The notes below the pieces were generated by a model. It was not told the DNA's origin. It worked only from the letters and a program-made list of their open reading frames with translations, and did not search any database. A stretch of DNA of 64,000 bases from Desulfocapsa sp. (GTDB taxonomy: Bacteria > Desulfobacterota > Desulfobulbia > Desulfobulbales > Desulfocapsaceae), in contig JANTGG010000002.1 of assembly GCA_024763035.1 (NCBI GenBank), positions 48,970 through 112,969 on the forward strand, in the 5' to 3' direction. The translations under genes and the position numbers were made by a program. This document shows, piece by piece, positions 12,417 to 16,103 of the stretch; positions within the stretch are counted from its first letter, which is position 1, and each line of letters opens with the position of its first letter.

Positions 12417-13058
12417 TCAGATAAGAATGTTCTGGGCAAAGGCGATAACCGGCATGATCATCCTGGAGAGCAGTCCCGAAAAAGCCAGGACGAGGATAAT
12501 AACAAAACCGTATCGCTCAACTGAGGCGTAGGAACGTGCCATGTCCGGCGGCAGGATGCCGGCAAGTATTTTACTGCCGTCAAGGGGAGGGATGGGCAGG
12601 AAATTAAAGATACAGAGTACCAGATTGATCCATACAGACGCCATAAGCACCATATTCAGAGGGACAAGGATGGCCTCGGCAACTGATGAGTAGGGAAGGT
12701 TTTCTGCCAGAAACCAGACAACTTTTACAGCAATGGCACTGAGTACCGCGAGAATAAGGTTCACCACAGGACCGGCAAGGGCAACCCAGAGCATATCTTT
12801 TTGCGGATTCTTGAAATAATTCGGGTTGACCGGAACCGGTTTTGCCCAGCCTATCTTGATGATGAAAAAGGCGATTGTCCCCAGAGGGTCAAGGTGTTTC
12901 AGGGGATTGAGGGTGAGTCTGCCCATGGCTTTGGCAGTGGGGTCGCCCAGGCGGTACGCCACGTAGCCGTGGGCAAATTCATGCACCGTGAGCGCCAGCA
13001 GTATTGCCGGGGCAATCACAATGAATTGAAGAATGTAATCGTTCATGGTTTCCGTCAT
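12417..13058 (-). CDS. Site-2 protease family (M50) membrane metalloprotease
   Basis: HEFAH, GWAKPVPVNP, AGPVVN, NFLPIPPLDG. Confidence 0.9.
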   Translation of the reverse strand: MTETMNDYILQFIVIAPAILLALTVHEFAHGYVAYRLGDPTAKAMGRLTLNPLKHLDPLGTIAFFIIKIGWAKPVPVNPNYFKNPQKDMLWVALAGPVVNLILAVLSAIAVKVVWFLAENLPYSSVAEAILVPLNMVLMASVWINLVLCIFNFLPIPPLDGSKILAGILPPDMARSYASVERYGFVIILVLAFSGLLSRMIMPVIAFAQNILI

Positions 13059-13292
13059 ATCCTGTAAAGGTGATAGTGCAGTTTTGTTGTGTCTGCTGCA
13101 AGGGTAAGCATTGAAAAGGAAGGGGGCAAGGGGGGCTGTTTTTTACTGAATGATTTTGAGGGTGATCTTCCTCGGAGAAAACAGTACCTCTATTTGCAAT
13201 ATTTTAGGTAGATAATGCGGTTTTTTTAATAGAAAATAACCGGTTGGGGACAATGCTGTTAAGGATTGTTACGGCTCAGCCGGGATTTTTCC

Positions 13293-13329
13293 TTGACGAT
13301 AAAAGGAGACGGTATTAAAAATTAATACC
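13293..13329 (+). promoter_or_regulatory. Promoter plus perfect palindromic operator directly before the RHH-znuACB operon
   Basis: TTGACG 13293-13298, 17-nt spacer, AT-rich -10 at 13316; inverted repeat GGTATTAA-aaa-TTAATACC at 13311-13329 abuts ATG 13330. Confidence 0.65.
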
Positions 13330-13635
13330 ATGGAAAAGAAAAAAGAACGGGTCTTCTCATTTAAGGCAGATGGTGATCTCTCCACAGCTCTTGAAAATAC
13401 ACCCAACCGCTCGGAATTTATTCGAAAGGCTCTCCTTGCAGCCCTGGAGCACGAATGTCCGTTGTGCAGGGGGACGGGGGTACTGAGTCTTGAGCAGGGA
13501 AAACATCTTGAGCAGTTTCTCACCCTCCATGCCTTAACCCGATGCGAAGAATGCCAGGCAGTGCATTTTGTCTGTCAGTCCAACGCTGATGACGGAGAAT
13601 CTCATACAAAGGTAAAAGGGGGAGTTCAGAAATGA
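13330..13635 (+). CDS. Ribbon-helix-helix (CopG-like) regulator with C-terminal CxxC...CxxC metal-binding motif
   Basis: VFSFKAD...NRSEFIRKAL RHH pattern; CPLC and CEEC plus HFVC; 4-bp overlap with znuA. Confidence 0.75.
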   Translation: MEKKKERVFSFKADGDLSTALENTPNRSEFIRKALLAALEHECPLCRGTGVLSLEQGKHLEQFLTLHALTRCEECQAVHFVCQSNADDGESHTKVKGGVQK

Positions 13636-14498
13636 GTTGTGTCAAAGTGGTTGTTTTCCTTTGTGTTCTGCTCTGTTTTTTTCCGGCTTTGCTGGTGGCG
13701 TCAGAGTCGGGAAAGGTGGATGTGTTTGTCTCCATTCCTTCACAGAAGTGGTTATGTGAACAGGTGGGTAAAGGTCTGGTCACGGTGCGGATACTGATAG
13801 AGAAAGGGCAGGAACCGCATAGCTTCGAGCCTCGTCCCCGCCAGATACTGGAGTTGTCAAAGTCGTCCATTCTCTTTGGTGCCGGTCTGGTGTTTGAGAA
13901 AGGGCTTATGCAGCGGATGGGGCATAGTTTTCTCAATTTTCGTATCGTTGATACCACAGAGAAAATCCACAGGATCCCCATGCAGGGAGAGAAAAGCGAG
14001 AAAGGCGAGATGGATCCCCATGTCTGGTTGTCACCTGTTAATCTGAAGATTATGGCAGCATCCATGGCAGAAAATCTCGCTGTTGAAGACCCGAAGAATG
14101 CGGAGGTCTACCAGAAGAATATGGCGGAACTCGGTCGGCAGCTGGATGATCTGGATCGTGAGATAACTGAACGCCTTGCCCCATTTCGGGATGCCTCATT
14201 TCTGGTGTTTCATCCGGCATTCGGGTATTTCGCCGACAGGTACCATCTGCATCAGGTTGCGGTGGAGGTTGGAGGACGTTCGCCAACACCCAAAAAACTT
14301 GCCGCTCTTATCGGAAAGGCAAGGAAGGAAAAGATCCGCGTGGTCTTTGTGCAGCCCCAGTTTGACCCCAAAAGTGCCAATGTGGTTGCCAATGCTATTC
14401 ACGGGCAGGTGGTTCCCATGGATCCTCTGGCAGAGAATGCAGCAGAGAGTCTGGACGTGATGGCAGAGAAGATTGCGGAAGGGCTGGGGGGTAAATAG
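13632..14498 (+). CDS. znuA: Zn/Mn ABC transporter substrate-binding protein (ZnuA family)
   Basis: EPHSFEP, DPHVWLSP, FHPAFGYF; signal peptide. Confidence 0.88.
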   Translation: MSCVKVVVFLCVLLCFFPALLVASESGKVDVFVSIPSQKWLCEQVGKGLVTVRILIEKGQEPHSFEPRPRQILELSKSSILFGAGLVFEKGLMQRMGHSFLNFRIVDTTEKIHRIPMQGEKSEKGEMDPHVWLSPVNLKIMAASMAENLAVEDPKNAEVYQKNMAELGRQLDDLDREITERLAPFRDASFLVFHPAFGYFADRYHLHQVAVEVGGRSPTPKKLAALIGKARKEKIRVVFVQPQFDPKSANVVANAIHGQVVPMDPLAENAAESLDVMAEKIAEGLGGK

Positions 14499-15271
14499 TG
14501 CAGCCCATAGGACCTTTCCAGGAGAGTGCTGTTTTCATAAAGAATCTGAACTTTTCTTATGATTCTCGGCTGATTCTCGAAGATGTGAATCTTGATATCT
14601 TTCCCCTGGATTCCATCTGTGTGGTCGGTCCCAATGGTGGCGGCAAGACGACACTGGTCAAGCTTATTCTCGGATTACTGCATCCGGATAGCGGTACGGT
14701 GCAAATCTACGGAGGCAGCCCCGAAGATGCCCGTCTGCGCATGGGCTATGTACCCCAGTATGCCCAGTATGATTCAAGCTTTCCCATTTCTGTGCTGGAA
14801 GTGGTGTCCATGGGATGTTTGGGCAGAAGCTTCACCGGGAGGTACAGCAGGGAAGATCGGGCACAGGCGATGGACTCCCTTGAAGAGACAGGACTTGCTG
14901 ATATTGCAGGGCGTCCCTTTGCCTCAATTTCAGGGGGGCAGCGCCAGCGGGTACTGATCGCCCGGGCACTGGCAGCAAAGGGTGATATTCTTATTCTTGA
15001 TGAACCCACTGCCAATATCGACCATGAGAGTGAAATGCATTTTTTTGAATTGCTCACACGGTTGAATCAGCGCATGATTATCCTGATGGTGACCCATGAT
15101 GTGGGTTTTGCGTCCACCTTTTTTAAACGCATTGCCTGTGTCAATAAGCAGGTGAAGATCCATCCCACAAGTGCACTCACGGGAGATATGATCCGTGAAA
15201 TGTATGGTGGCGACCAGCAGATGATCCGCCATGATCACTGCTGCGGTCCGGAGGGACACACTTATGGGTGA
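14498..15271 (+). CDS. znuC: Zn/Mn ABC transporter ATPase (ZnuC family)
   Basis: GPNGGGKT, ISGGQRQR, LILDEPT, VTHD; His/Cys tail HDHCC. Confidence 0.88.
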   Translation: MQPIGPFQESAVFIKNLNFSYDSRLILEDVNLDIFPLDSICVVGPNGGGKTTLVKLILGLLHPDSGTVQIYGGSPEDARLRMGYVPQYAQYDSSFPISVLEVVSMGCLGRSFTGRYSREDRAQAMDSLEETGLADIAGRPFASISGGQRQRVLIARALAAKGDILILDEPTANIDHESEMHFFELLTRLNQRMIILMVTHDVGFASTFFKRIACVNKQVKIHPTSALTGDMIREMYGGDQQMIRHDHCCGPEGHTYG

Positions 15272-16103
15272 TTTTCTGACGGTCATCCTGGATCCTGACC
15301 TGCCTTTTCTCCGCTATGCTCTGCTCACCGGAATCTTTGCCTCCATTCCCTTTGGAGTTATCGGCACCTTCGTTGTCGTAAGGCGGATCAGTTATATTGC
15401 AGGTGCCATTGCCCACTGTGTGCTCGGTGGCATCGGTTTGGGGCTGTATCTGGAAAAGGGGATGGGGGTCGGCTGGTTTGGTCCGATTCAGGGGGCGGTT
15501 CTCGCAGCACTGCTGGCAGCTTCTGTTCTTGCCGTGGTGAGCCGCCATGCAAAACAGCGTGAAGACAGTGTTATCGGTGCTCTATGGGCGGTGGGGATGG
15601 CGGTGGGGCTGCTCTTTATTGCCAAAACCCCCGGCTATGTAGATCCTATGAGTTACCTCTTCGGAAATATTCTGCTGGTGGGAAAGAATGATCTGCTCTT
15701 TGTATTGGCACTTGATGTGTTGGTGTTCGGGGCGGTGTGGATATTTTATAATAAATTTCTAGCGATCTGTTTTGATGAGGAGTTTGCCCGGCTGCGAGGC
15801 GTCTCAACAGGCTGGTTCTATCTGTTTCTGCTTTGCCTGACTGCCCTCACCATCGTACTTCTGGTGCGGGTGGTGGGAATTGTGATGGTTATAGCCCTTC
15901 TCACTCTACCTGCAGCCGTTGCCGGCAATTTTTCCAGAAATATCTTTCAGATGATGCTGGTGGCGGTACTGTTCTGCGTGTTTTTTGTGGTAACAGGGCT
16001 GGGGCTCAGCTTTTCCCTGGACCTGCCCAGTGGTCCGGTCATTATTCTGGTGGCGGCGGTGGTATATTTGTGCACCATGGTGTTTGAGAGGCTGAGACAT
16101 TAA
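15264..16103 (+). CDS. znuB: Zn/Mn ABC transporter permease (ZnuB family)
   Basis: GAIAHCVLGG, YLFGNILLV, FDEEFARLRG, VGIVMV; multiple TM segments. Confidence 0.88.
   Translation: MGDFLTVILDPDLPFLRYALLTGIFASIPFGVIGTFVVVRRISYIAGAIAHCVLGGIGLGLYLEKGMGVGWFGPIQGAVLAALLAASVLAVVSRHAKQREDSVIGALWAVGMAVGLLFIAKTPGYVDPMSYLFGNILLVGKNDLLFVLALDVLVFGAVWIFYNKFLAICFDEEFARLRGVSTGWFYLFLLCLTALTIVLLVRVVGIVMVIALLTLPAAVAGNFSRNIFQMMLVAVLFCVFFVVTGLGLSFSLDLPSGPVIILVAAVVYLCTMVFERLRH

Follow-up and report, generated by a model that had tools for sequence, protein, structure and literature searches.

We analysed a 64,000-nt stretch of contig JANTGG010000002.1 of Desulfocapsa sp. (below, the window), and within it the piece 13293-16103, which carries a metal-uptake operon with the gene order regulator-znuA-znuC-znuB. 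The first gene of the operon (13330-13635, plus strand) codes for a protein of 101 residues that we read as a fusion of two domains, a ribbon-helix-helix (RHH) for DNA binding and a small zinc knuckle, although formally its scores place it in neither Pfam family. Judging from the sequence comparisons described here, we consider it fairly probable that this protein acts as a zinc-co-repressed local autorepressor of the operon, in the role that is usually played by Zur. In hundreds of genomes, spread over many phyla, we observed the regulator, its operator and the zinc importer in association.

The regulator starts with MEKKKERVFSFKADGDLSTALENTPNRSEFIRKALLAALEHE, followed by C43-P-L-C46-R-G-T-G, C72-E-E-C75 and H79-F-V-C82. 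Immediately upstream of the gene is the putative operator, GGTATTAA-AAA-TTAATACC (13311-13329, no strand assigned). Its halves, GGTATTAA at 13311-13318 and TTAATACC at 13322-13329, make a perfect 8+8 palindrome around the AAA at 13319-13321, and the last base adjoins the ATG at 13330. An earlier note on this DNA had described the first gene of a metal-uptake operon as coding for an RHH domain with CPLC...CEEC...HFVC, and had placed a perfect palindrome over the -10 region, ending one base before the ATG; all these features were found in the sequence as described. The same 19-mer was identical in the window and in the loci L002 and L003, i.e. in three Desulfocapsa metagenome-assembled genomes (MAGs), in spite of saturation at synonymous sites. 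The earlier note had also proposed a search for the palindrome across the genome and upstream of orthologs. In the source genome (3.3 Mb, 92% complete) the palindrome occurred once; because of this, and because the 19-mer was kept across the three saturated MAGs, it is not a chance feature.

For the orthologs, we counted the motif GTAwTAC-N3-GTAwTAC, at two mismatches or fewer, within 200 nt upstream of the start codon in 81 loci. It was present in 72 of them, compared to 6 hits in 552,625 nt of other sequence from these loci (≈0.002 per 200 nt), and was common to upstream regions from all the phyla sampled. The window has a clade variant of this motif, GTATTAA-N3-TTAATAC. Where the regulator closed the operon (L020, L067) or was encoded on the opposite strand (L049), the motif stood upstream of znuA instead. 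At loci lacking Znu (L052, L068), it stayed with the regulator.

The site typical of the family consists of two 7-bp pseudo-palindromes (GTAwTAC), each with a free centre base, with the centres 10 bp apart. A position matrix derived from 116 unique sites reads gGTAwTAc-nnn-GTAwTAy, with T2, A3, T5 and A6 essentially fixed. All four A/T combinations at the two heptad centres were present among these sites, as would be expected for symmetric dimers. The operator is thus made of two tandem heptads, probably for two dimers, and not of one inverted repeat for one dimer. The earlier note had taken it for a single inverted repeat bound by an RHH dimer; the perfect palindrome stands for the window, but the description does not carry over to the family, where the site is a pair of tandem heptads.

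Some promoters had more than two heptads, namely those at L049:6766-6792, L133:3850-3888, L148:3879-3919, L168:3871-3911 and L129:3935-3973. Three heptads stand in a row at L049 (GTATTAC-AAA-GTAATAC-TTT-ATAATAC), and two complete operators, separated by 22-24 bp, were present at several Bacillota/Clostridia loci. The extra heptads suggest a higher-order binding.

We then have to ask which protein reads the site. Within the order to which the window belongs, the RHH gene was present in 17 of 151 genomes, and 12 of these 17 had the exact pattern 24-60 nt upstream of the gene. The 134 genomes with no such gene had 15 scattered hits, no more than in a control with the reversed pattern. Three congeners (G030, G133 and G067) have orthologous znuACB genes (ZnuB identity 76-79%) next to the same M50 peptidase gene, and have neither the RHH gene nor the heptads. 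Thus, the heptads track the RHH gene and not the importer, with only background levels where the gene is missing, which argues against a Fur-family binder. The earlier note had considered that a Zur box might explain the control of the operon; the background level of heptads in congeners that have orthologous znuACB but no RHH gene speaks for the RHH protein. In a search for a Zur box common to the window promoter and the RHH-less orthologous promoters of the congeners, only TTGACGA aligned.

It is very improbable, in our estimate, that the heptads are bound by a Fur-family Zur while the RHH/Cys protein is an accessory one, such as a zinc chaperone or a co-regulator. Such a role for Zur could find support in the three Fur-family genes of the source genome, all on other contigs, and in the Bacillus-type Zur boxes, which contain GTAAT-N-ATTAC. 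None of the three genes reached an NCBIfam cut-off, and their best scores were with PerR/Fur models. C42:892-1344, one of the three, shares 60% identity with a Fur-family gene located 179 nt downstream of znuB in G030; given this resemblance, a Zur-like protein may be present in this cell, but nothing links one to this promoter. On the other hand, the site was found only together with the RHH gene; it was missing at the orthologous znuACB of the congeners, though Fur-family genes are there, and it goes with the RHH gene to loci with no Znu. At least 12 phyla share one form of it, whereas the boxes of Zur vary from phylum to phylum. Two heptads 10 bp apart with free centres resemble the sites of RHH proteins (omega, MetJ, Arc) and not the 7-1-7 box of Fur. 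Also, the Zur type encoded in the znuACB-zur operons of congeners is missing from this genome.

Several observations on Fur-family genes and on the congeners are given here for completeness. A second Fur-family gene of the source genome (G000:C14:21173-21922) lies beside genes for rubrerythrin, peroxiredoxin and desulfoferrodoxin, and it looks PerR-like. Its product has a C-terminal extension of ~100 residues with a Cys-rich linker (GCGCKKGG...CDGPC), a winged-helix-like segment and weak Csa3/ArsR-type matches. In a Planctomycetaceae locus, the RHH regulator is closely preceded by a Fur-family gene of the other strand (L136:3191-3625, minus strand; PF01475, 1.8e-20); since L136 has both, Fur and RHH regulators can coexist at one locus. 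Some congeners have a second, more distant Znu system, with 40-45% identity, and directly after it a gene for a 144-residue Fur-family protein (MCEQCDY...), the classical znuACB-zur arrangement, as in L112 (G067:C1:1174605-1174928) and L110 (G095:C66:8198-8482); neither this znuACB-zur system of G067 and G095 nor its Zur type was present in the source genome. In the loci L091 (G030:C86), L092 (G133:C3) and L093 (G067:C1), a gene for a membrane protein of ~300 residues lies between the M50 gene and znuACB. In the znuA promoters of these RHH-less congeners, GCAATGMTTATTCT stands directly before TTGACGA as a common block, and a palindrome ATATAC-G-GTATAT is present in two of the three. Separately, a prophage or toxin-antitoxin origin of the RHH gene was considered and rejected, given its fixed chromosomal pairing with zinc importers, its promoter operator and the lack of a toxin-like partner.

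The link to zinc comes from the gene neighbourhood. We used two samples of loci: the 80 loci most similar to the window protein and, partly overlapping with them, 75 loci centred on a Planctomycete member of the family. Znu genes were found within 4 kb in 74 of 80 and in 67 of 75 loci, respectively. In 71 of the 80 loci of the first sample, the genes followed the order regulator-znuA-znuC-znuB on one strand, directly downstream. In two Planctomycetota genomes, a gene of a ZIP-family zinc transporter (PF02535) replaced znuACB after the regulator and the operator (L068:4309-5313, the same as L113, and L114:4478-5290).

A third kind of gene was observed after the regulator and the operator at loci of Verrucomicrobiota and Planctomycetota that have no Znu, coding for an unannotated membrane protein of ~215 residues (L052:4293-4931, L136:4424-5080, L137:4305-4958). 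A pair of these proteins aligned over 203 residues with 48% identity; several His are conserved (HAPFT, HVxLS), and there was no Pfam match. They may form an undescribed family of zinc transporters.

In the window, the importer is of the ZnuABC type (cluster A-I), with the ZnuA fold, the ATP-binding cassette (ABC) ATPase and the ABC-3 permease all scoring far over the Pfam cut-offs. All three genes are on the plus strand: znuA, for the periplasmic zinc-binding protein, at 13632-14498 (210.9 bits, 3e-62), starts in an ATGA overlap with the regulator stop; znuC, for the ATPase, at 14498-15271 (ABC_tran, 98.4 bits, 6.9e-28), has a GTG start overlapping the znuA stop; and znuB, for the permease, has its longest open reading frame at 15231-16103 (229.6 bits, 6e-68). 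The best NCBIfam match of znuC was AztA, with a score under the cut-off of that model. The closest solved structure to the window ZnuA was Synechocystis ZnuA (2ov1/1pq4, E 1.8e-49). In the alignment to 2ov1, three zinc-ligand His motifs are kept (ePH, DPHvW and vFHP), and the third ligand is His, not Glu; PsaA-type Mn proteins have sEGAF at the third position. Neither a second Znu system nor a ZIP transporter was found in the source genome.

We also observed two possible starts for znuB. The longest reading frame, from ATG 15231, shares 41 nt with znuC, and ATG 15264 (MGDFLTV...) would reduce the overlap to 8 nt; the latter may be the true start.

Relatives of the regulator formed 57 clusters in a set of 5.8 billion proteins, where their names did not go beyond "CopG family" or "ribbon-helix-helix domain-containing"; in a representative set at 50% identity there were 258 representatives with E≤1e-3. 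In terms of GTDB species, more than 445 genomes from at least 12 phylum-level lineages had a relative. The hosts include Thermodesulfobacteriota, Planctomycetota, Bacillota, Spirochaetota, Verrucomicrobiota/Victivallales and Nitrospirota, as well as Hydrogenedentota, Sumerlaeota, Ignavibacteria, Acidobacteriota, TA06, GN15 and others.

Domain matches were recurrent in the family and stayed under the thresholds. RHH_1 matched 52 of the 57 members (E≤0.1, the best 2.1e-4), DnaJ_CXXCXGXG matched all 57, and Anti-TRAP matched 35. The window protein itself scored 13.1 bits with RHH_1 (PF01402; cut-off 20.5, E 0.098), and thus falls short of the gathering score; it had 16.6 bits against 32.7 with DnaJ_CXXCXGXG, 18.2 against 32 with Anti-TRAP, and 21.8 against 60 (E 1.3e-4) with the NCBIfam RHH family aCcr1. 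It contains one full CxxCxGxG (C43-P-L-C46-R-G48-T-G50) and one CxxC (72-75). There was no match of the regulator to FUR (PF01475), MarR or NikR_C in Pfam and NCBIfam. With the sub-threshold RHH_1 similarity and the CxxCxGxG knuckle so widespread in the family, the statement of the earlier note that the first gene product lies outside the Fur and MarR families is borne out.

Residues F11, K12, N26-R-S-E-F-I-R32, L39, C43, C46, G48, G50, Q56, H67, C72, C75 and C82 were invariant in alignments of 23 and 57 members, and H59 was nearly so. Here, F11, K12 and N26-R32 are the predicted RHH strand and helix-2 cap. When the family profile was compared with the PDB, anti-TRAP (3lcz) was matched with E 8e-4 over CPxCxGxG and the next helix (anti-TRAP residues 25-51). 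Helix 2 of the profile aligned to NRSEAIRDILRSAL of E. coli NikR; the PDB matches to NikR had E 0.45 and 1.5 and covered the RHH part only. The AlphaFold2 model of the monomer, made with 57 sequences, showed helices at 15-22, 27-38 and 54-66 and a hairpin at 67-71/78-82, with residues 50-80 best determined.

One member of the representative library, P0058 (185 residues), is a natural tandem duplication with two complete RHH and zinc-knuckle units, i.e. a single-chain dimer, and could serve structural work. A single-sequence AlphaFold2 prediction of P0058 as a pseudo-dimer was uninformative (predicted local distance difference test score, pLDDT, 36).

We propose the following mechanism, in which DNA binding, stoichiometry and the role of zinc as a ligand and co-repressor are all inferred from sequence. 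The N-terminal RHH segments would pair into dimers, and two dimers would occupy the two heptads, whose centres are one helical turn apart. As the operator lies over the -10 element and the start site, the bound protein would exclude RNA polymerase. The C-terminal domain is predicted to consist of the CxxCxGxG knuckle, a helix and a beta-hairpin with CxxC, and to hold a structural Cys4 zinc at C43, C46, C72 and C75. A second, exchangeable Zn(II) would most likely be bound via H59, H67, H79 and C82, and would switch on or stabilise operator binding, perhaps by linking the two dimers. With plentiful zinc, the importer and the regulator would be off; with scarce zinc, the site would empty and the operon would be expressed. 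The regulator, being the first gene of its own operon, would be under autoregulatory feedback. Translation of znuA would occur by coupling at the ATGA overlap, aided by its own GGGGGAG. The direction, i.e. zinc as a co-repressor, is suggested by analogy with the known uptake repressors Zur, AdcR and NikR as treated in the part of a 2024 review that we draw on (PMC11672702).

Together with the Fur-family genes described above (the three in the source genome, the C42 gene with its znuB-adjacent relative, and the L136 gene), several points weigh against this mechanism. No model of Pfam or NCBIfam reached its cut-off with the regulator for either domain. The sites of the position matrix were chosen by similarity to the consensus, so their invariance is partly by construction. 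The monomer model is only moderate (pLDDT 71), with the N-terminal strand 7-13 (RVFSFKA) unformed, as is to be expected if the fold depends on a second chain; a Foldseek search of this model against the PDB gave nothing below E 0.8, and the matches were unrelated proteins. The Cys4 site alone would be structural, and the second zinc site is read only from conservation. With regard to the transcript, the DNA sequencing runs matched to the locus were hydrothermal-vent metagenomes, and there was no RNA run among them.

The point on the Cys4 site leads to another explanation, which we regard as unlikely: the operator-binding autorepressor is real, with a Cys/His domain that has a purely structural role or responds to a signal other than zinc. 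The candidates are thiol oxidation releasing zinc (as in Hsp33 and RsrA), or Mn, Fe, Co or Ni; the operon would then be under simple negative feedback or under the redox state, and not under zinc availability. Indeed, the clearest metal site is a DnaJ/anti-TRAP-type Cys4 knuckle, which is structural in those proteins, the top structural neighbours were Hsp33 chaperones (at non-significant scores), and cluster A-I importers include Mn and Fe systems, with the NCBIfam Zn models not reached in our case. However, the family is tied to two unrelated kinds of zinc importers, the three-His Znu and ZIP. Also, five Cys and one or two His are invariant or nearly invariant, which is more than a Cys4 site needs, and a zinc-blind regulator of a zinc importer would be unusual. 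All the computationally testable parts of the reading in the earlier note, namely the family, the operator, the synteny, the co-occurrence and the promoter geometry, came out in favour of it, and we retain the zinc-co-repressed autorepressor as the preferred reading.

The position of the operator relative to the promoter has consequences for the transcript. The only sigma-70-like site on the plus strand of the 270-bp intergenic region has the -35 hexamer TTGACG at 13293-13298; from the promoter scan and from comparison of promoter geometries, the -10 element lies within the operator at 13316-13322 (plus strand), as TAAAAA with a 17-nt spacer or AAAAAT with an 18-nt spacer. The operator thus spans the region from -10 to +1. 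Across the family, the TTGAC-like hexamer stands either 2-6 nt (40 loci) or 12-13 nt (17 loci) before the operator; the clade of the window and many Planctomycetota are in the latter class. In the 12-13 nt class, the -10 element corresponds to operator positions 5-10, TACAAT or TACGAT in Planctomycetota and TAAAAA here, and therefore the +1 is expected at the 3' end of the operator. For the window the predicted +1 should be at 13328-13330, coinciding with the A of the ATG; transcription would begin from this A or 1-2 nt before it.

Relatives differ in what follows the operator. In L001, L002, L004 and G138, a leader of 23-24 nt with GAGGAGG comes after it. In the window and in L003 there is no leader, and TTAATACC runs straight into the ATG; L003 also has neither AGGAG nor any other Shine-Dalgarno sequence. 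The ratio of nonsynonymous to synonymous substitution rates (dN/dS) between the window gene and L003 was 0.04, with dS saturated; this value speaks for strong purifying selection, and therefore the gene stayed functional in the absence of a leader. In L059, a Spirochaetales MAG with the first geometry, the ATG is 9 nt past the operator, again at the predicted +1. There was no second in-frame ATG, GTG or TTG between the TAA at 13300 and the ATG at 13330. We believe, with fair but limited confidence, that the regulator is translated from a leaderless mRNA; the leaderless state appears as a recent variant in a family whose other members have ordinary leaders.

The only Shine-Dalgarno-like run in the window promoter is the AGGAG at 13304-13308. 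It ends 21 nt short of the ATG, just as the earlier note had reported, and lies in the spacer between the -35 and -10 elements. This run would matter if the mRNA were not leaderless, i.e. if it started upstream, with the 8-bp operator palindrome forming an RNA hairpin that would bring the AGGAG close to the start, or with translation independent of a Shine-Dalgarno sequence. Hairpins of this kind operate in phage T4 gene 38. The arrangement of AGGAG, 2 nt, hairpin and AUG is such that a stem-loop could bridge the 21-nt gap, and the region folds at -11.2 kcal/mol (z = -2.66). Still, we find a longer transcript doubtful. Being located between the -35 and -10 elements of the sole predicted promoter, the AGGAG should not be transcribed, and in the minimum-energy fold it is itself paired with a downstream CUUCU. 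L003 has the same operator-ATG junction with no AGGAG, the relatives of the same geometry have their Shine-Dalgarno sequence downstream of the operator, and the upstream gene, for an M50 peptidase (12417-13058), is divergent to the operon, on the opposite strand. A leaderless transcript of the regulator gene is the reading that we keep.

The sequence of 13100-13800 was matched without differences by a 19.6-kb contig of the sequencing run X1, which is probably the source sample, so that this match is not an independent support. A second X1 contig (1.5 kb) matched 32 bases, 13313-13344, i.e. the 3' part of the operator and ATGGAAAAGAAAAAA, with one mismatch, and continued into unrelated AT-rich sequence; this match is probably due to chance or to another organism.

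In the part of the 2024 Chem Rev review that we draw on, the metal sensors of bacteria are divided into about a dozen structural families, RHH sensing is treated under NikR, for nickel only, and repression of zinc uptake is assigned to Zur and AdcR/ZitR (PMC11672702). We found no description of the window protein family in full-text literature on RHH/CopG, zinc uptake, Zur or heptads, a coverage that leaves out most subscription journals, and no solved structure was found for the family. New here are the clade variant of the operator, the two promoter geometries, the leaderless layout in two MAGs, the presence and absence within a genus, and the second and third kinds of target genes.

We put at about even the chance that the family is an unrecognised structural class of Zn(II)-sensing transcription factors. 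NikR would then have a second metal-sensing RHH family beside it, and Zur and AdcR would be joined by a third kind of zinc-uptake repressor. This repressor would have its own cross-phylum operator and would move in a self-contained cassette of regulator, operator and importer that replaces Zur-type control patchily, even within a genus, with a minimal leaderless form here. If so, a gap would be closed by a sensor of ~100 residues with RHH and zinc-knuckle domains that occurs in at least 12 phyla, and it would account for the control of zinc import in lineages that are often uncultured or little studied (Planctomycetota, Thermodesulfobacteriota, Hydrogenedentota, Sumerlaeota, anaerobic Bacillota). 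Hundreds of genes named "CopG family" could be better annotated. In the lineage of the window, 40 bp would be enough for the -35, the -10, the operator and the start codon. For biosensors, the regulator and its defined 17-bp operator would provide a zinc-responsive switch of very small size. With leader and leaderless forms in close relatives, there is a natural comparison for asking how a gene can persist once its ribosome-binding site is lost.

Among known systems, NikR is the closest in logic and in the DNA-binding domain. It is similar in its N-terminal RHH domain, which in the window protein is a predicted one (helix 2 starts almost identically, with NRSEAIRDIL in NikR and NRSEFIRKAL in the window protein), in the use of a metal as co-repressor of an ABC metal importer, which we propose here, and in a GTAT-rich operator. 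However, the window protein has neither the NikR_C/ACT-like tetramerisation domain nor the His3Cys nickel site, and has instead a 45-residue CxxCxGxG...CxxC knuckle. The NikR operator is GTATGA-N16-TCATAC, compared to two adjacent heptads with N3 in the window family, where the targets are zinc importers. With NikR_C, the N16 operator and nickel all missing, the window protein, as its sequence reads, is not a NikR.

Zur and AdcR/ZitR likewise repress operons of the znuABC type and are often encoded within them, and Zur has a structural Cys4 site with a His/Cys sensing site, an arrangement that we propose for the window protein as well. Nevertheless, both are winged-helix proteins, and the predicted RHH fold here is unrelated and has another operator. 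The likeness to the Cys-rich domains of anti-TRAP and DnaJ consists in C-P-x-C-x-G-x-G and the next helix, which align to anti-TRAP, and in the sub-threshold DnaJ_CXXCXGXG matches; the window protein differs from them in having a simple CxxC in a hairpin as second half-site, with extra conserved His/Cys, and in the fusion to a predicted DNA-binding domain. In anti-TRAP, the zinc domain drives oligomerisation.

The operator is closest in kind to those of omega (pSM19035), MetJ, Arc and CopG, with 7-8-bp units about a helical turn apart, the heptads here occurring in all four centre orientations. Each short unit there is bound by one dimer, whether the units are direct or inverted, and neighbouring dimers bind cooperatively over the promoter. 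These proteins lack a metal-binding domain, such as we propose for the window protein, and are not regulators of metal transport. Finally, lambda cI (P_RM) and Tn1721 tetR are cases where the AUG of the repressor is the 5' end of the transcript and the repressor's own operator overlaps the promoter; the layout of the window is similar, with the difference that its transcript start is a predicted one.

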